Shown piece by piece: positions 5,955-33,292 of a stretch of 64,000 nt of DNA (position 1 is the first letter of the stretch; every line of letters starts with the position of its first letter). The position numbers and the translations under genes are program-made. Under the pieces are notes generated by a model that did no database searches, was not told the origin of the DNA, and saw only the letters and a list, made by a program, of their open reading frames with translations. The DNA comes from an uncultured Gemmatimonadales bacterium (GTDB taxonomy: Bacteria > Gemmatimonadota > Gemmatimonadetes > Gemmatimonadales > GWC2-71-9), in contig CAWCFX010000006.1 in assembly GCA_963795085.1 (NCBI GenBank), forward strand, positions 416,001 through 480,000, read 5' to 3'.

Positions 5955-7547
5955 GTGCCCGATACCCGCCTGATTCTCCCGCCCGCCGGCAGCTCCTCGC
6001 CGCCCACCGGCGGACGGGTACGCGAGATCCCCGAAGACCTGCTCCGGGAAGCCGCCAACCGGCTCCGGCTGAGCGCCCTGATCGGCGTGGTGCTCTGGCT
6101 GGTCGGCCTGACCCTCGACCATCTCGCCCGCCAGGCGCTGGAGCCGGACAACCCGGCCTGGCGGCAGCTCCACGCGGGCGACGCGGTAGCGGCGGTCGGG
6201 ATCCTCACCTCGCTCGGTTTCTATCTCTACGCCCGGTACTCCCGCCGGCCCCCGCGGTTCATGCTGGACCTGGGGCTGGTCTATCTCGTCCTGACCTCGT
6301 TCTCGCTGGCGATTATCGCCCACGTGGGGTCCGGCGTGCATACCGCGACGATCCAGCCCACCTTCAGCTGGGTCGCCTCCCTGGTGCTGATCTTCGCCGC
6401 GATCATTCCCAACCCGCCCGGGAAGACCCTGGTGGCCGGCCTCATCGCCGTCTCCATGAACCCGGTGGCCATGCTCATTGCCCGGGCCCAGGGCGCGTGG
6501 GACTTCGAGCCGGGCAGCCACGCCTTCCTGATGCACTATCCCGACTACATCATGGTGGGCGTGTCGGTCGTCATCTCCCGGGTGGTGACCCGGCTGGGCC
6601 AGCAGGTGGGCAAGGCGCGCGAGCTGGGGAGTTACCGGGTGGGCGAACTGCTCGGCAAGGGAGGCATGGGCGAGGTCTATCACGCGACTCACCGGATGCT
6701 GGCCCGGCCCGCGGCCATCAAGCTGATCCGGGCCGGGATGCTCGGCGGCGGCGACCCCGAAGCGCTGCGACTCGCCCTCCGGCGGTTTCGCCGGGAGGCC
6801 GAGGTGGCGGCGAGCCTCCGGTCTCCCCACACGGTCGAGCTGTATGACTTCGGCGCGACCGAAGACCAGAGCCTCTACTACGTCATGGAGTTGCTCGACG
6901 GGCTGGACCTGGAGGCGCTGGTCCGGATGCACGGCGCCCAGCCCGCCAACCGGGTCGTCCACATCCTGCGCCAGGCCTGCGAATCGCTGGAAGAGGCGCA
7001 CGCCCGCGGCCTGGTGCATCGCGACATCAAGCCGGCCAACATCCACCTGGGCCGAATGGGGCTGCGGCACGACTTCGTCAAGGTGCTCGACTTCGGACTG
7101 GTGAAATCCATCGCGGACGCCGCGGCGGGTGGCGACCAGGAGCACTCGCTGGGGACGGGGATGGGACAGGCGGCGGGCACCCCCGCCTACATGGCGCCGG
7201 AGACCGCGCTGGGTGAAGCGGTGGATGCCCGGACCGATCTCTACGCCCTCGGCTGCGTCGCCTATTACCTGCTCACCGGCACGGTGGTCTTCGAGGCCGC
7301 GACCTCGCTGCAGGCGGTGGCCCGGCATATCAACGACCCGCCGGTCCCACCCTCCGAGCGGCTGGGTGCCCCGCTCCCGGCCGGCCTGGATGCGCTCGTC
7401 CTGGCCCTCCTGGCCAAGCGCCCGGAGAACCGGCCCGGCGACGCGGCCGAGGTGGCGCGACGGCTGGAGGCGGTGGAGGTGGAGCGATGGGGGGAGACCC
7501 AGGCGGCCGCCTGGTGGACAGAACTTGGCGGTAAAACGGGGCGGTAG
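5955..7547 (+). CDS. membrane-anchored Hanks-type Ser/Thr protein kinase
   Basis: Several N-terminal TM helices; GKGGMG, AAIK, HRDIKPAN, DFG, GTPAYMAPE. Confidence 0.92.
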   Translation: MPDTRLILPPAGSSSPPTGGRVREIPEDLLREAANRLRLSALIGVVLWLVGLTLDHLARQALEPDNPAWRQLHAGDAVAAVGILTSLGFYLYARYSRRPPRFMLDLGLVYLVLTSFSLAIIAHVGSGVHTATIQPTFSWVASLVLIFAAIIPNPPGKTLVAGLIAVSMNPVAMLIARAQGAWDFEPGSHAFLMHYPDYIMVGVSVVISRVVTRLGQQVGKARELGSYRVGELLGKGGMGEVYHATHRMLARPAAIKLIRAGMLGGGDPEALRLALRRFRREAEVAASLRSPHTVELYDFGATEDQSLYYVMELLDGLDLEALVRMHGAQPANRVVHILRQACESLEEAHARGLVHRDIKPANIHLGRMGLRHDFVKVLDFGLVKSIADAAAGGDQEHSLGTGMGQAAGTPAYMAPETALGEAVDARTDLYALGCVAYYLLTGTVVFEAATSLQAVARHINDPPVPPSERLGAPLPAGLDALVLALLAKRPENRPGDAAEVARRLEAVEVERWGETQAAAWWTELGGKTGR

Positions 7548-8566: not shown

Positions 8567-8962
8567 ATGCACACCGCCGCCCGGCTCGTCGTGGTGCTCG
8601 TCGGTTGTTATCTCCTCGCCCTGGGGCTCGTGGCGTGGATGGCGCCGGCACGGGCCGAGCGATTTCTCGGCGGATTCGCCGGGTCGGCACGTGCGCACTA
8701 CCTGGAGCTGTCGCTCCGCCTCGTCGCCGGCTGGGCCGTCCTCGCCTCCGCTCCCCACATGCTGTTCCCCGGGTTCTTTACTCTCTTCGGCTGGGTGCTC
8801 CTCCTCACCACCGCCGGACTCTTCGCCATACCGTGGCGGCTGCACCGGCGCTTCGCCGAGTGGGGTGTCCCCCGGGCCATGCGACACCTGAAGCTGGTGG
8901 CGGTTGCTTCGTTCGCGCTTGGGGGGTTGATCATCGCGTGCCTCGTTGCCGGCAGGGGCTGA
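8567..8962 (+). CDS. hypothetical membrane protein
   Basis: FLGGFAGSARAHYLELSLR...IPWRLHRRFA; starts 4 nt after the previous gene. Confidence 0.75.
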   Translation: MHTAARLVVVLVGCYLLALGLVAWMAPARAERFLGGFAGSARAHYLELSLRLVAGWAVLASAPHMLFPGFFTLFGWVLLLTTAGLFAIPWRLHRRFAEWGVPRAMRHLKLVAVASFALGGLIIACLVAGRG

Positions 8963-9065
8963 AGTACCGCCTCCCCTGGCAAGCCGGCCGGCCATGTCCC
9001 TCAGCGGAGTCTAGTCCATGGGCGTCAAGGGAACCCACCTCCATCTTGGCGGCCAGGCAGATGCG

Positions 9066-9315
9066 CACATGGGGCGTTCCCATTGCCTCACCTCGACCTT
9101 CGAGGCGCATTAACGCAGAGAGCACCGAGTGTAACTACGAGTCCGCAGAAACTGGGATCGTTTCAGTTCATTATGACTTTGTTTCCGCGTCCTCTTGGTC
9201 CTTCTGCGCCCTCTGCGTTAAAGCGCCTCGGAACGCGAATCCACGACAATCCCAGCGCCCGCCAGAGCGTTACAGCGCCCCGAGCCCGAATCCACGACCA
9301 TTTCAACGCCCACGC
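9066..9315. repeat. MITE/REP-like palindromic element copy 2
   Basis: Inverted repeat 9101-9120 / 9211-9230 (one mismatch); internal and flanking sequence similar to copy 1. Confidence 0.85.
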
Positions 9316-9344
9316 CAAGCCTTACAGCGCCCTCGAGCCGGACC

Positions 9345-9760
9345 TTCAACCCTTCTGTCCCCAGGCTCTACCCTGATGTGACACCGTTCCAAGGTGTCCT
9401 CCTTTTGATTCAGTCCCGGCTGCCGCGGGGGTGAACCCCATTGCCGGCCGCTCCAAGGTGACTGGCCGCCCGGATCGAGCCTCCTCTACCCCGCGTACAA
9501 CCCGCCTGCCGGGAGCTTCAACCCGATTGTCCGGCGAGTCCAAACTTCCTGCCGGGGGGTCCGAGCCTCCTGGCCGGGTGCTTCGAGCCGGCCACCCCAC
9601 CTTCCAACCCTGCATGCCGGCTGGTTCGACCCTGTTGTCCCGGGGGTTCCACCTGCCTGCCGGGTGGTTCCACCCACGTGAGGGCCGGTTCCACCCTGCT
9701 GACTCACCACTTCCACCCTGCTGCCGGGTGGTCCAACCCGACTCGATGCGTCCTCCAACG
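9345..9760. repeat. degenerate tandem array, ~20 units, period 21-22 bp, consensus ~GGTTCCACCC(T/G)NCTGCCGGG
   Basis: Core positions about 9346, 9367, 9388, 9410, 9432, 9452, 9475, 9497, 9518, 9539, 9560, 9582, 9603, 9625, 9647, 9668, 9689, 9711, 9732, 9754. Confidence 0.8.
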
Positions 9761-9832
9761 GGAGCGCCTGTGTCCTCCCGTGGGGATGGTTCGCTGTCCG
9801 TGCGGCCGGGCCGCGGGGTGCGATGAAACCGT

Positions 9833-9860
9833 TTGCACTGCCCTCCCCTGGACGCATGAT
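9833..9860 (+). promoter_or_regulatory. candidate sigma70 promoter for the 10006 gene
   Basis: TTGCAC-N16-CATGAT. Confidence 0.35.
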
Positions 9861-10005
9861 ATCTCGCGGCCGCGCAACTGGTTGAGCGCGGGTGCTGAGC
9901 ATCGGGCCGCGGGCCTCGGCCGGGAGGCTCGAGTGGTCTGGCACGCCGGTTCCGTTGGGGGGCATCCATCGCGGGATTCATCATGACCACTCACAGGAGC
10001 GTCGT

Positions 10006-10854
10006 ATGAAGCGCATCGTTCGTCGTAAACTGGAGATGGTGAGCCGGGTGCGGGAGTTCTGCCGGAGTCATCCGATCGATATCGACGGCTACATCGAGGC
10101 GATGGCCCGGCTGGAGGACCGGATGGCGCGGGCGGAGGCGCTGGCGGTGCTGCAGGGGACCGGGTTCCTTCACCAGAGCGGCAGCACCCGGTCCAAGGCG
10201 GTGATCCGGGAGGAGATCCGGGAGCGGCACCTGCGCCACCTGGTGCGGATCGCCCGCGGCGCGGCGGGCGACGTCATGGCGATCACCTGCCGGTTCCGCC
10301 TGCCGAAGAAGGGCATCAACGGGCAAGCCTTCGCCTCCGAAGCCCGGGCGATGCTGGGCCAGGCGGCGGAGTACCGGGCGCTGTTCATCAAGGACGGCAT
10401 GCCGCCGACGTTCATCGAAGACATCCATAAGCTGCTGGCCGAGTACGAGGGAGCGGTGACGGGGCAGTATGAAGGGACGGCGTGGCACGTGGGAGCGGTG
10501 GCGGAGCTGCCTGCCCTGGCGCGGGAGCTGTGCCAGCTGGTGAAACGGCTGGACGCGATCAACCAGATGCGGTTCCAGCACGACGCGGGACTCCTGGGGG
10601 CCTGGGACGCGGCTCGGCGGGTGTCGTGGCCGGGGGCGGGGGCGAAGGCGGTGGTGGAGGTGGCGGCGGAGGAGGCAGGAGAGGTGATGGAGGTGGCGGG
10701 AGAGGTAATGGAGGTGGCGGGAGAGGTGGTGGAGGGAGAGGGTCTGGGGCTGGTGGCGTTGGGGGGGCTGGCGGAGTTCCTATCCAGGGGCATACTGGTA
10801 GGGCAACGGCGACTCGTGAGCAATCCCTCGTTGGTCAGAAACCTTACATCTTAG
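10006..10854 (+). CDS. uncharacterised predicted all-alpha protein with acidic heptad-repeat tail
   Basis: AGGAG RBS; RKLEMVSRVREF...RFRLP...GMPPTFIEDI...LDAINQMRFQHDAGLLGAWDAAR; 21 bp coding repeats EVMEVAG at ~10680-10735. Confidence 0.85.
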   Translation: MKRIVRRKLEMVSRVREFCRSHPIDIDGYIEAMARLEDRMARAEALAVLQGTGFLHQSGSTRSKAVIREEIRERHLRHLVRIARGAAGDVMAITCRFRLPKKGINGQAFASEARAMLGQAAEYRALFIKDGMPPTFIEDIHKLLAEYEGAVTGQYEGTAWHVGAVAELPALARELCQLVKRLDAINQMRFQHDAGLLGAWDAARRVSWPGAGAKAVVEVAAEEAGEVMEVAGEVMEVAGEVVEGEGLGLVALGGLAEFLSRGILVGQRRLVSNPSLVRNLTS

Positions 10855-10865
10855 CGGGGGTTACA

Positions 10866-11462
10866 ATGCGTGCCCTGGGGATCACCCTGCTGCTGAGTTC
10901 ATTGTCTTCTCTTCTGGCGGCGCAAACCACATCGAGCGCACGCGAGTTCAAGCCCAGCTCCTGCGCCGCCGCCGATAGCGCCCTGGGACGGCCGATCTCC
11001 AAGCCCCGCCAACCGATCCAGGGGATGTATTCCCGGGCAACCGGAGAGTCCATGGTGTTCTCAGCCGACCCCTGGGCCTACAATGCCTCGCGTCCCCTCC
11101 GTGCGGTCTGGGTAACCACGAAGTTCGCCGGTGACGGGCCGGAGGCAATGCCCATCCTGGGCTTCCAGGTGCGCCTTGAGGATACGTTGCTGAGGGTCGG
11201 CCCGGATGCCCGGCTGAGCCTCCAGTTCGACAGTGCCGCCGCCCAGGTCATCGGGGAAATGCAGGGACAGCGCTTTGGTTCTGGGCGCAAGATCGACCAG
11301 GTGCTGACGATCGGGCTCACCGGGCCGGAGTCACGGCAACTGGCCGCTGCGTACCGGGTCCGGGGCATGATCGGGGAACTCGCTTTCGAGGTTCCTGAAC
11401 GGGCCCTGGAGGGCATTCGGGCCGTCTACGTCGCGGGGGCATGTGGAGTAAGGCTCCGGTAG
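10866..11462 (+). CDS. hypothetical secreted protein
   Basis: Signal peptide MRALGITLLLSSLSSLLAAQ; N- and C-terminal Cys. Confidence 0.65.
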   Translation: MRALGITLLLSSLSSLLAAQTTSSAREFKPSSCAAADSALGRPISKPRQPIQGMYSRATGESMVFSADPWAYNASRPLRAVWVTTKFAGDGPEAMPILGFQVRLEDTLLRVGPDARLSLQFDSAAAQVIGEMQGQRFGSGRKIDQVLTIGLTGPESRQLAAAYRVRGMIGELAFEVPERALEGIRAVYVAGACGVRLR

Positions 11463-31963: not shown

Positions 31964-33292
31964 ATGGCGACAATCCTGGTGGCCGAGGACGAACCCGGAC
32001 TGCGGGCGTTCATCGCTGAAGCGCTCGAGGGCGACGGCCACCGGGTGTCGCAGGCGGCCGACGGGGCCGAGGCGCTGAGGCAACTGGCGGGGGCCGCCTT
32101 CGATCTGCTGATCACCGATCTCCGGATGCCCAACCTCGACGGGATGGCGTTGCTCCGGCGATCCCGGGCCGAGCAGCCGGAGATGGAAGTGATCGTCCTG
32201 ACCGCCCACGGTTCGGTGGACTCGGCGGTAGAAGCCATGAGGCTCGGCGCCTTCGACTACCTGGAGAAGCCGATCGGGAGCCCGGCCGAACTCCGGCTGA
32301 TCGCGATGCGGGCGCTGGAACGGCGGTCGCTCCTGGCGGTGAAGGACCGGGCTGCCAGGGAGGTCCCGGCGCTACCGCCCCTTTCGTTCGGTGATCCCGC
32401 GATGGTCCCGGTGCTGGAGGCTCTCCGGAAGGTGGCCCGGACCAATGCCACGGTGTTGCTGACCGGCGAGAGCGGGGTCGGCAAGGAGATCGCCGCGCGC
32501 ACGCTGCACGCCTGGAGCGACCGGGCGGATGGGCCGTTCGTGGCGCTCAACTGCGCGGCCATCGCCGATTCCCTGCTGGAAAGCGAGCTGTTCGGCCATG
32601 AGAAGGGTGCGTTTACCGGCGCGACCTCGGCCCGTCGGGGGCGGATCGAGCTGGCGGACGGCGGGACCTTCTTCCTGGACGAGATCGCCGAGATGAAGCT
32701 CGAGCTCCAGGCCAAGTTGCTCCGGGTGCTGGAACAGCGCCGGTACGAGCGGGTGGGCGGGTCACGCACCCTCGATGCCGACGTGCGCTGGGTGGCGGCC
32801 ACCAACCGCCAACTCGGCCAGTTGCGGGCGTCGGGCGATTTCCGGGAAGACCTGTATCACCGGCTTGCCGTCTTTCCGATTCACCTGCCGCCTCTGCGGG
32901 AGCGACGGTCGGATATCCTGCCCATCGCGGAGTCGCTGCTGATCCGGCTGGCCTCGGAGCTGGGTCGCGGCCGGCTGACGCTGTCTGACCCGGTCCGACG
33001 CCGACTGGTCGAGGCGCCGTGGCCGGGTAATGTGCGCGAACTGGCCAATGCGCTGGAGCGGGCCGCCATCATCGCCGATGGGGCCGAGATCAGGGCCGAG
33101 CATCTCTCGGTTCCCACGGTGTTCCCGGAGGGGGTCGCCGGCCCCAGCGACGAGTCGCTGGCCGCCATCGAGCGGGCCGCGATCGAGAACGCCATCGCCC
33201 GCGCGCAGGGCAACCGTAACGAAGCGGCGCGGATGCTCGGCATCGGGGTGCGGACGCTGTACGACAAGCTCAGGAAATACCGCGACGCATGA
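31964..33292 (+). CDS. sigma54-dependent response regulator (NtrC/AtoC family)
   Basis: [39 protein letters not shown], Fis-type HTH. Confidence 0.96.

Follow-up and report, generated by a model that had tools for sequence, protein, structure and literature searches.

The window, that is, the whole 64-kb stretch of DNA analysed here, contains a 1-kb non-coding gap (8963-10005) in which a phased array of short direct repeats (9302..9775, forward strand) lies ahead of an open reading frame for a 282-amino-acid protein, P0001 (10006..10854, forward strand). The array comprises 19 detected units on about 22 register positions, at steps of 21-22 bp. Units were located with an iterated 15-column weight matrix at a lenient threshold, which gave 233 matches in the 64-kb window, 19 of them inside 9340-9770. 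Their spacings are 21 bp (eight times), 22 bp (five times), 20 bp and 23 bp (once each) and 43 or 44 bp (three times, each corresponding to a skipped unit), with a mean of 21.5 bp. Within 9345-9760 the autocorrelation of bases has maxima at lags 21 (0.428), 22 (0.411), 43 (0.472) and 64/65 (0.449/0.464), and again at lags 86 (0.485), 108 (0.494) and 151 (0.509); in 1000 mononucleotide shuffles, evaluated over lags 5-69, the per-shuffle maximum averaged 0.340 and its top value was 0.381. The preliminary description of this DNA, which reported about 20 degenerate units at 21-22 bp with a mean near 21.5 bp, is thus borne out far above the shuffled background, and the unit cores that it named are present along with CCGGG, the best-kept positions of the units being TTCNANCC and CCGGG. 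The spectral period of the array is likewise 21.5 bp, accompanied by a strong 10.75-bp harmonic. With default settings TRF recovered only fragments of the array, and with lenient settings 11.6 copies of a 21-bp unit with 59% matches.

Across the array the sense strand of the gene is C-rich (GC skew -0.15 to -0.27) and the GC content is 0.65-0.70, an AT-rich unwinding stretch being absent. An independent short contig covering 9357-9567, which may share the same sample, aligns to the window without gaps, and no copy-number variants of the array were seen in short low-depth contigs from four DNA runs, which left most of the array (9568-9886) uncovered. Judged by eye, the array units make poor sigma-54-like sites, their GG-to-GC spacing being one base short, and this assignment was rejected. 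Several smaller features accompany the array. A 52-bp tandem repeat of 2.4 copies (9215..9339; TRF, 81% matches) adjoins it distally in the same 1-kb gap, and the distal array contains a terminator-like hairpin with a 6-bp stem and a T-rich tail (9380..9398, forward strand), a class of structure found once here against 1.1 expected in shuffles. At the promoter-proximal end two GTCCTCC motifs were noticed by eye (9750-9756 and 9772-9778, forward strand), as was a third at 9396-9402; at the corresponding place relatives carry a GTCCTC-N4-6-GAGGAC palindrome, again by eye. Closer to the gene, and on the same forward strand, lie a GCCGGGAGG box (9919..9927), which is kept as G(T/C)CGGGAG in the leaders of relatives, and a Shine-Dalgarno sequence, AGGAG (9995..9999), 6 nt before the ATG.

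The preliminary description had pointed to a well-initiated 282-amino-acid reading frame without recognisable domain; the AGGAG element agrees with this, and P0001 belongs to no Pfam, PHROG, NCBIfam or PADLOC family. The protein consists of a family domain (residues 1-216), predicted to be a basic, elongated helical bundle, and of an acidic extension specific to this copy (residues 217-282), which replaces the ...PAA end usual in the family. Within the extension, a coding 21-bp tandem repeat of 3.2 copies specifies EVAGEVM heptads (10668..10735, forward strand; TRF, 89% matches). The predicted structure has a pLDDT above 90 for residues 1-205, with helices at 3-21, 27-86, 106-129, 136-189 and 194-204. 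The family is large, with 5,299 representative sequences, and unnamed, being represented by neither a Pfam nor an NCBIfam model; a typical member has about 225 amino acids, and the pI of the members has a median of 9.5. In P0001 a net charge of +6 resides on the N-terminal helix. Of 160 full-length members, 117 end in AA, 70 of these in PAA, while P0001 ends in ...NLTS and has lost this tail. Degrons of the ClpXP type have a free C-terminal -AA, as in the ssrA tag, and lead to turnover by protease; the tmRNA tag encoded by the source genome reads ANSELAMAA. Since the -AA end of the family thus resembles the end of the cell's own degradation tag, family proteins that carry it are presumably short-lived.

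Searches for distant relatives of the family gave little that could be named. Foldseek found no match in the PDB at E values up to 0.001, and a wider fold search returned generic helical bundles only, headed by the McpS sensor domain, whose Z of 10.6 (rmsd 4.0, 181 residues) falls short of the approximately 13 advised for helical bundles. The HBM (helical bimodular) sensor domain (PF16591), which comprises two stacked helical modules, gave sub-threshold matches in three of 26 members, with a best E value of 0.0014 and a cut-off of 29.8 bits. PspA/IM30 (PF04012), with its ESCRT-III-like hairpin fold, had no Pfam match in the 26 members and is absent among the fold-search matches listed. A sequence profile search of the PDB with the family yielded nothing meaningful, and the ESM Atlas held unnamed clusters only; PADLOC gave two single-member matches at chance level, PHROGs one family in two of 26 members, and the NCBIfam 'PQLLE family' matched two of 26 members at 1e-5. 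In the predicted model of the family protein no known DNA-binding fold was recognisable. The protein is helical in the structure prediction, as the preliminary description supposed, and its best structural matches fall below the level considered meaningful for helical proteins. The suggestion that similar proteins occur in several phyla fared less well: a single Atlas cluster label (Acidobacteriota) hints in that direction, but the search of 401 genomes of the phylum confined the family to two families of one order, with 76 genomes carrying it.

What is new here is a predicted sigma-54-type -24/-12 promoter that separates the array from the gene. The sigma-54 consensus is TGGCACG-N4-TTGCW, with GG at -24, GC at -12 and a fixed 10-bp spacing between them. 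Of 38 family loci, 26 have the motif TGGC[AC][CT]-N5-N[TC]GC at 40-220 bp ahead of the ATG, against about 0.014 expected per region searched; most of the remaining loci have near-variants, and the motif is invariant across a leader alignment of 13 sequences. At the window locus the strict motif is absent. Alignment with the leaders of six relatives places the orthologous site at 9879..9895 (TGGTTG...TGC, forward strand), where the GG-to-GC spacing is 2 bp too long, and the promoter element of this copy is probably degenerate. An alternative sigma-54-like site, TGGCACG-N4-TTCC (9939..9953, forward strand), lies 67 bp before the ATG; it has a good -24 element, but TTCC in place of TTGC leaves its -12 element without GC, and similar TTCC or ATCC variants are found at loci L031, L024 and L009. 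With its degenerate promoter, its lost -AA tail and its unit identity of 59%, the window copy looks partly decayed. The preliminary description placed an unspecified candidate promoter after the array; we found no sigma-70-type promoter in 8900-11000. The genome encodes rpoN (PF04552 matches at C2:375987-376463) and about 12 enhancer-binding proteins (12 strong matches to PF00158), and one of these PF00158 matches falls inside the window (32393-32884). Sigma-54 is described as recognising -24/-12 elements, and its known enhancers as lying 100-150 bp upstream and working by looping (PMC7057263). On their proximal side the arrays end at a median of about -150 relative to the ATG, immediately upstream of the -24 element and within looping distance.

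The link between array and gene is real and extends well beyond this locus. Each of the five full-length paralogues of the source genome is preceded, at a distance of 150-900 bp, by its own array of 21-22 bp steps, and the unit sequence differs from one paralogue to the next; those at C4:7042 and C6:744903 encode canonical family proteins. In a genome-wide periodicity test, 44 of 155,356 windows passed, among which 11 are clear non-coding 21-22 bp arrays; five of the 11 precede the five family genes, and the other six are orphans, with neither a family gene nor a convincing sigma-54-like site alongside. These orphans are old collinear copies with 63-66% identity to gene-linked arrays. The idea that orphans are 'inverted' when compared with gene-linked arrays of other contigs was discarded, as contigs are oriented arbitrarily. 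Among other Gemmatimonadales genomes, the upstream periodicity score reaches at least 0.15 at 22 of 31 homologue loci, compared with none of 30 downstream regions and one of 33 gene bodies; a second, partly overlapping set of homologues has an array upstream in eight of 20 cases and downstream in none of 19. TRF agrees, in that scores of at least 100 in the 21-bp period class are found upstream in 26 of 52 cases and downstream in none of 49, and other periods show no upstream bias (8/52 versus 6/49). The pairing of the array with a protein family, first suggested from one locus, is hereby generalised, and the notion that homologues lack adjacent arrays is contradicted by the 22 of 31 and eight of 20 positive loci. 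A third to half of the homologue loci have no array detectable by the measures used. One such locus is L062, where a neighbouring gene reaches to -160 and the promoter is still kept, which indicates that the array is dispensable for at least some copies. No neighbour genes are conserved in the 1.5-kb flanks of 38 loci. Intergenic tandem repeats of other kinds abound in the source genome as well, 19 regions being of a heptamer type. No phased array precedes its small gene with an fn3 domain.

Across loci, geometry is conserved and sequence is private. The median spectral period of 43 arrays is 21.1 bp (10th-90th percentile 20.7-21.6), and exact 21-bp periods are found in many relatives, yet no 5-mer recurs in phase in more than two of the 43, so that no shared core motif emerges. 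In 36 of the 43 it is the sense strand that is rich in C. Median power at harmonics 1-4 is 3.2, 3.0, 3.1 and 2.9, and a preferential 10.5-bp harmonic, the signature of curvature, is therefore not general over the 43 arrays; the 10.75-bp harmonic is strongest in the window array (power 9.6 for four bases and 10.4 for A/T versus G/C). Most arrays are degenerate, with about 50-70% matches between units, and others are highly regular, such as those at L033 (89% matches) and L042 (70% matches). Gene and leader are 76% identical between the paralogous loci ownB and ownC, whose arrays cannot be aligned and are phased nonetheless. Among arrays of at least 245 bp, seven of 23 have stops in all six frames, and no gene-like GC3 was seen. 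It is because each locus has its own unit sequence that the idea of a lattice for the adjacent protein stays alive. The degeneracy and the old collinear orphans fit slow decay and function equally.

We tentatively favour, at a little under an even chance, the reading that the array is a same-face protein-docking lattice of a self-contained sigma-54 module. The cassette runs from the array through one or more short palindromes, the sigma-54-type -24/-12 promoter and a conserved leader to a single gene and is present in multiple copies in Gemmatimonadales, the array being its far-upstream part. The array would most likely act as double-stranded DNA, its roughly 20 weak sites, two helical turns apart, presenting a single face of the helix; on this docking lattice a protein may assemble cooperatively beside the promoter, thereby tuning enhancer-dependent activation. 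What the data show directly is the array with its phasing, its lack of coding capacity, where it lies and how it is oriented with respect to the promoter, and its recurrence in the family; we infer both that some protein binds the array and which protein this may be. The cassette's own protein is the most economical candidate reader, since it is the only locus-specific gene product and the arrays have no common core; within the whole, we regard it as possible, if doubtful, that this protein reads the array as an autoregulatory lattice. Counting against the lattice are the loci without a detectable array, the orphans that have neither gene nor sigma-54-like site, the degeneracy of the units, the non-canonical promoter of the window copy and the lack of a recognisable DNA-binding fold in the protein. 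A bolder version, which we hold to be unlikely, is a private nucleoprotein switch in which the elongated, basic, short-lived protein would polymerise head-to-tail on the array of its own cassette with one protomer per 21 bp, the filament would gate its own sigma-54 promoter, and protein and array would co-diversify. With such a switch, up to seven or more paralogous cassettes could coexist in one cell without cross-talk, and the orphan arrays would offer these proteins additional places to land.

The docking lattice has to be weighed against readings in which the adjacent protein plays no part. The array could be an enhancer-like platform for a common trans-factor, either a bacterial enhancer-binding protein or a nucleoid-associated protein, which would cover it in phase with the helix and supply the sigma-54 promoter with activator, and the adjacent protein would be no more than cargo. 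The DNA-binding domains of enhancer-binding proteins are Fis-like helix-turn-helices. The position of gene-linked arrays upstream of a sigma-54-type promoter, the presence of rpoN and about 12 enhancer-binding proteins in the genome, and the existence of enhancers with several sites, such as the three of NorR (PMC2831303), all speak for such a platform. We nevertheless consider it improbable, as the arrays share no regulon-like site, the palindromes that resemble ordinary activator sites stand apart from the array in the interval before the promoter (by eye), and the orphan arrays have no sigma-54 site. Moreover, to our knowledge no described enhancer approaches twenty sites over 400-500 bp. 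A dedicated reader would be superfluous if the array were a sequence-independent structural element, in which phased anisotropic bending, as given by any sequence of 21-bp period, produces curved or wrappable DNA that aids looping or pins supercoils. Conservation of the period rather than of the sequence, and the strength of the 10.75-bp harmonic in the window array, are in keeping with this; as the 10.5-bp harmonic is no stronger than the others across the 43 arrays, and the strand bias would be left unexplained, we think it distinctly improbable. Only a slim chance is likewise given to a functionless minisatellite that arose by slippage in an ancestral upstream spacer, was copied at duplications and is now decaying. 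Low unit identity, the loci without a detectable array, the descent of the orphans as collinear copies and the abundance of heptamer-type repeats would all be expected of it. However, arrays built of unrelated units agree in period, side, orientation bias and promoter distance, fresh regular arrays keep arising at the same place, as at L033 and L042, the arrays of ownB and ownC have remained phased while becoming unalignable, and the 21-bp period is missing from all 49 downstream regions.

Three further readings fare worse, two of which were raised in the preliminary description. Transcription of the array as a repeat non-coding RNA, for example as a sponge that would titrate an RNA-binding protein, which might be the adjacent one, is suggested by the basic nature of that protein and by the resemblance of some 20 units in about 430 nt to sponge RNAs of the CsrB type, which are of similar size and unit number. 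There is, however, no Rfam match at E values up to 1; the fold energy of the window array has z values of -0.5 and +0.7 against dinucleotide shuffles, with |z| below 2 in nine of ten strand-by-array tests; the conserved promoter lies downstream of the array, with no sigma-70-type promoter found; and the arrays have no common motif, all of which makes such an RNA very improbable. The likeness to a plasmid-type iteron origin or a partition centromere is confined to unit length and phasing, iterons of R6K and pPS10 being 22-bp repeats. An iteron origin would be expected beside a Rep initiator gene such as Rep_3, with an AT-rich unwinding element and DnaA boxes, and at one locus per replicon; a repeat-type centromere would be expected beside genes for a partition NTPase and an adaptor. 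The likeness is set against the lack of a Rep, ParA, ParM or TubZ gene, of partition NTPase domains by Pfam in neighbouring ORFs, of conserved neighbours and of an AT-rich unwinding stretch at this GC content, against a chromosomal copy number of at least five (11 arrays and five cassettes in the source genome) and against the context of sigma-54-type promoters downstream; an origin or centromere thus has hardly any probability left. Least probable of all, to the point of being negligible, is a minus-strand heptad-repeat coding sequence spoiled by indel errors. A 214-aa minus-strand ORF (9346-9990) is indeed open through the array, and many relatives have an exact 21-bp period, but open frames are to be expected at 68% GC, four of the six being open in this array, and the ORF has no Pfam family. 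The 20-, 22- and 23-bp steps would break any repeated peptide, in accordance with the array having been called non-coding from the outset, and the indel-error alternative is contradicted by the six-frame stops in long arrays of relatives and by the gapless independent contig, possibly of the same sample.

The bacterial paradigm of enhancer-dependent transcription is the sigma-54 promoter, whose described enhancers are short. A docking lattice of about 20 phased sites, private to each paralogue and with a single gene as cargo, would extend the sigma-54 enhancer model, and the module would indicate either long cooperative lattices or a structural role for periodic DNA. Should the private switch prove true, it would add a class of DNA-binding proteins and a logic of sigma-54 control that are both new. 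The cassette also offers a first handle on a large unnamed family that is abundant in soil Gemmatimonadales, in the form of a predicted regulator (sigma-54), a predicted instability signal (the -AA end) and a testable DNA partner. At a more practical level, the arrays generate spurious long ORFs in GC-rich genomes, e.g. 'long forms' of 466 and 343 aa, and their recognition improves genome annotation. Arrays are often seen at contig ends in fragmented assemblies, which suggests that they break assembly.

The layout of an array before a sigma-54-type promoter is apparently undescribed, as a search of the literature for arrays of phased 21-bp units, whether at sigma-54 promoters or from Gemmatimonadetes, gave nothing relevant among the papers listed. 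The closest parallels are the sigma-54 enhancers themselves. At glnAp2 the NtrC sites are upstream activating sequences for sigma-54, and known enhancers of this kind have one to five sites, usually palindromes, with a sequence common to the regulon. Those of NtrC at glnAp2 and the three of NorR at norVW (the latter in PMC2831303) likewise lie upstream of a -24/-12 promoter and are double-stranded protein-binding DNA, as the array presumably is, and several sites can aid oligomerisation of the activator. Here, in contrast, about 20 direct repeats extend over 400-500 bp and reach 700-900 bp upstream, they are private to each locus, and short palindromes separate from the array occupy the normal enhancer position. 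In-register sites on one face of the DNA are also known from the 22-bp Pho boxes and from the phased Fis sites upstream of stable-RNA promoters. These resemble the array in being head-to-tail or in register, one or two helical turns apart, upstream of a promoter; they differ in comprising two to nine sites with a common consensus at sigma-70 promoters, whereas the present arrays are far longer and have no consensus. The iterons of the R6K gamma origin, pPS10 and RK2, and parC of R1, consist of directly repeated units of about 20-22 bp that keep helical register. They too adjoin the gene of the presumed binder and comprise four to ten or more units, but here there is no Rep or Par protein, origin feature or plasmid, and a sigma-54 promoter stands between array and gene. 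MIRU-type mycobacterial VNTRs are degenerate tandem intergenic repeats of tens of bp that vary between loci, without a fixed two-turn period and unlinked to one gene family or promoter type. For the gene and its product, the nearest counterpart is the psp system, in which, according to PMC7057263, a sigma-54 promoter drives the helical protein PspA (about 220 aa), and PspA in turn exerts feedback on PspF, its activator. A sigma-54-type promoter, a single all-helical protein of about 220 aa and, in the model favoured here, feedback by the product are common to both; psp, however, has no repeat array, our family has no PspA/IM30 sequence match and is predicted to fold as a closed bundle, and PspA acts on the activator rather than on the DNA.

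Arrays of degenerate direct repeats with a 21-22 bp spacing stand upstream of genes of one protein family, and this pairing is real and general, extending to about half to two thirds of loci. In the window, the non-coding gap of about 1 kb between an ORF end at 8962 and the ATG at 10006 holds such an array, with a C-rich plus strand. Base-level autocorrelation over 9345-9760 peaked at lags of 21 (0.428), 22 (0.411) and 43 (0.472), with further peaks at 64/65, 86, 108 and 151 and a maximum of 0.509; the best lag of 1000 shuffled controls averaged 0.340 and never exceeded 0.381. Starting from the clearest examples, an iterated weight matrix resolved 19 units over 9302-9775, separated by steps of 21 bp (eight), 22 bp (five), 20 and 23 bp (one each) and double steps of 43/44 bp (three), with a mean of 21.5 bp, and the preliminary description of about 20 degenerate units at a mean of about 21.5 bp was therefore accurate. 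A separate 52-bp tandem repeat lies directly distal to the array (9215-9339; 2.4 copies, 81% matches by TRF), and the ORF at 5955-7547 carries, by eye, Ser/Thr protein kinase motifs preceded by a membrane region.

The genome of the window contains five full-length paralogues plus fragments, and all five have an array 150-900 bp upstream with a period of 21-22 bp (or 42-44 or 63-65 bp), the unit sequence differing at each. Scanning this genome in 155,356 windows flagged 44 regions, which we sorted on inspection into 19 heptamer repeats, 11 apparent coding heptads, three doubtful cases and 11 clear non-coding 21-22 bp arrays; five of the latter precede the five family genes and six are orphans, with no family gene beside them. 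No array precedes the small fn3 gene of this genome. Heptamer tandem arrays, common in this genome (e.g. contig positions C6:51901, C3:112926 and C1:428801), have to be filtered out of autocorrelation scans, where they pass for a 21-bp signal. Across the phylum, the family was found in 76 of 401 sampled genomes, a tally that takes in G099, a genome flagged as unpublished, and it was confined to two families of one order (66/165 and 9/94, against 0/141 in ten other families); many genomes are multi-copy, with up to seven copies, seven being the number scored per genome. Where enough upstream DNA was available, the periodicity score reached at least 0.15 upstream of 22 of 31 loci, compared with 0/30 downstream and 1/33 gene bodies, and in a second, partly overlapping set of Gemmatimonadales MAGs the figures were 8/20 upstream and 0/19 downstream. 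TRF arrays of the 21 class scoring at least 100 were likewise upstream at 26/52 loci and downstream at 0/49, and the other TRF periods had no upstream bias (8/52 versus 6/49). Arrays are thus present beside homologues, where their absence would have spoken against the pairing proposed from the window alone. Loci outside the pairing have very degenerate arrays (L054) or none; at L062 the neighbouring gene extends to -160. In fragmented assemblies, the start of a family gene is often no more than about 100 bp from a contig end (G110:C40:11-691, G097:C24:50-730, G346:C89:39-737), which would be expected were the upstream array to interrupt short-read assembly. Gene calling has also run on through arrays and produced spuriously long ORFs, among them P0026 (466 aa) and P0085 (343 aa).

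The window's family member, P0001, is encoded on the plus strand at 10006-10854 behind a good ribosome-binding site and, in agreement with the view of a well-initiated 282-aa ORF with no recognisable domain, no family model in Pfam, PHROG, NCBIfam or PADLOC matched it. The family is large and unnamed: a word-indexed search returned only 22 relatives. Profile searching against 1.84 billion representative sequences gave 5,299 matches at E up to 0.001, 616 of them at 1e-30 or below; members are usually 220-235 aa long. AlphaFold2 with the family alignment predicts, confidently for residues 1-205 (pLDDT above 90), an elongated helical bundle with long antiparallel helices (27-86 and 136-189) on which shorter ones (3-21, 106-129 and 194-204) are packed. 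Fold searches returned only generic helical bundles, headed by the McpS sensor domain with a Z of 10.6, below the level advised for helical proteins; HBM-domain matches were sub-threshold in 3 of 26 members, and this resemblance is a lead only. Family members are basic, with a median pI of 9.5, and in P0001 the N-terminal helix carries a net charge of +6. The last two residues are -AA in 117 of 160 full-length members, 70 of which finish in -PAA; the tmRNA tag of the genome is ANSELAMAA. ClpX recognises the ssrA tag by its free -AA terminus, and by analogy we infer that the family's -AA end may be a degradation signal. P0001 is an atypical member, lacking the -AA end: after residue 216 it continues into a 65-residue acidic extension ending in ...NLTS, and within this copy-specific segment (residues 217-282) lies a coding 21-bp repeat of EVAGEVM heptads (10668-10735). 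The ORF is intact, and another source has a 98%-identical 282-aa protein.

The usual order of the cassette is array, short palindrome, sigma-54-type -24/-12 element, G(T/C)CGGGAG box, hairpin GGCACG...CGTGCC and ribosome-binding site. The motif TGGC[AC][CT]-N5-N[TC]GC was present 40-220 bp before the ATG at 26 of 38 loci, against 0.014 expected per such interval from the genome-wide rate, and most other loci have near-variants. Its TGG and GC positions are invariant in the 13-sequence alignment of one subfamily (L033, L026, L023, L029, L030, L034, L032, L058, L061, L062, L059, L063 and L057), in which the leader after the promoter is strongly conserved, with the box GTCGGGAG and, immediately ahead of the ribosome-binding site, the hairpin GGCACG-(CCGAC-containing loop)-CGTGCC. 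The stem is invariant and therefore provides no covariation to judge by; the hairpin may be a second, post-transcriptional control point. By eye, short palindromes occupy the place of an ordinary activator site. In one subfamily they read GTCCTC-N4-6-GAGGAC and lie about 55 bp ahead of the -24 element; two paralogues in the window's genome have GCACTC-N9-GAGTGC (C4:6727-6750, C6:744228-744250 and C6:744486-744508). No gene is conserved in the 1.5-kb flanks of 38 loci, and the cassette is therefore self-contained. The genome carries rpoN together with genes for about 12 enhancer-binding proteins; the window holds one such gene (PF00158 match, 32393-32884), 22 kb downstream of the array and with no evident tie to the cassette. 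In the window itself, the counterpart of the relatives' promoter in the alignment (9879-9895) is spaced 2 bp too widely, and an alternative (9939-9953) combines a perfect -24 half with TTCC at -12. The candidate promoter first noted after the array thus fared less well, no sigma-70-type promoter being predicted in the locus and the sigma-54-type site being non-canonical. With this promoter, the lost -AA tail and a unit identity of 59%, the window copy looks partly decayed, a somewhat degenerate example.

That the array encodes protein is a reading with almost nothing left to it. Four of six frames are open across it, including a 214-aa minus-strand ORF, as expected at 68% GC; a repeated peptide could not survive the mixed steps of 20-23 bp, no Pfam family was matched in these ORFs, and among 23 relatives' arrays of at least 245 bp seven have stops in all six frames and none has gene-like third-position GC. 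A public-run contig spanning 9357-9567 gap-free argues weakly, as it is possibly from the source sample, against assembly error as the origin of the 22-bp steps. The earlier judgement that no reading frame is kept therefore stands; its suggestion of a repeat ncRNA finds no support, and we regard that as very unlikely: no Rfam match was found at E up to 1, the fold energy was no better than that of dinucleotide shuffles (z -0.5 and +0.7 on the two strands), and among the genome's five arrays only one strand of one array reached a z of -4.3. Purely structural DNA is improbable; the 10.5-bp harmonic, which would give intrinsic curvature, is the strongest in the window array, but over 43 arrays it is not preferentially strong (median power of harmonics 1-4: 3.2, 3.0, 3.1 and 2.9). 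A functionless minisatellite in decay we consider equally improbable. Very degenerate arrays coexist with regular, presumably young ones (L033, 89% matches; L042, 70%), and in two paralogues with 76% identical leader and gene the arrays are unalignable yet phased; over the 43 arrays the median spectral period is 21.1 bp (20.7-21.6 from the 10th to the 90th percentile), two turns of B-DNA, the sense strand is C-rich in 36 and the proximal end lies near -150.

Because the geometry is conserved, the side and distance to an enhancer-dependent promoter are fixed and the character is double-stranded, we tentatively favour, at close to an even chance, a putative same-face docking lattice, along which proteins would dock on one DNA face within the promoter's control region. 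A common factor coating the arrays is a less likely account, and a single sequence-specific one is unlikely since each cassette has units of its own, with no core in common and no in-phase 5-mer recurring in more than 2 of 43 arrays. As the sole locus-specific product, the cassette's own basic protein is the most economical candidate reader, as first proposed, although the protein has no known DNA-binding fold, and arrays without genes and genes without arrays both occur. The orphans, 63% identical to the window array over 282 bp and 66% to the C4 array over 639 bp, are old collinear copies of gene-linked arrays; no convincing sigma-54-like site adjoins the six. At C2:14950-15460 and C2:15534-16520, the orphan array that shares the window array's unit type lies between genes for, by eye, an AraC-type regulator and a tyrosine-recombinase-like protein. 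Another orphan (C1:531480-532080) is a higher-order repeat of about 172 bp in about 3.5 copies, whose units, the GCACT...AGTGC palindrome included, resemble those of the C4 and C6:744k arrays. Inverted arrays sharing one 22-bp unit type (C3:379550-379960 and, at the contig end, C3:395990-396436) surround a 16-kb segment of GC 0.58-0.64 versus 0.67, with few ORFs of gene-like GC3, which may be an acquired island with arrays at its borders.

The cassette is a real and recurrent regulatory layout, apparently undescribed; no account of such arrays turned up among the papers listed by literature searches. New here are the arrays' link to one large, defined protein family, the anatomy of the cassette, private units with a conserved period, the -AA tail and the controls. 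Plasmid iterons have a similar unit length and phasing, but none of their defining context is present at the array, leaving the proposed iteron or centromere barely credible. The psp system, as outlined in PMC7057263, offers a parallel to the proposed cassette: a single helical protein of about 220 aa, expressed from a sigma-54 promoter, feeds back. There is no array in psp and no sequence match to the family. The nearest known counterpart of the array is the sigma-54 enhancer, which the same account places 100-150 bp upstream and describes as working through DNA looping; described enhancers have few sites, common to a regulon, with three for NorR (PMC2831303). We class the layout as a new variety of sigma-54 upstream control.
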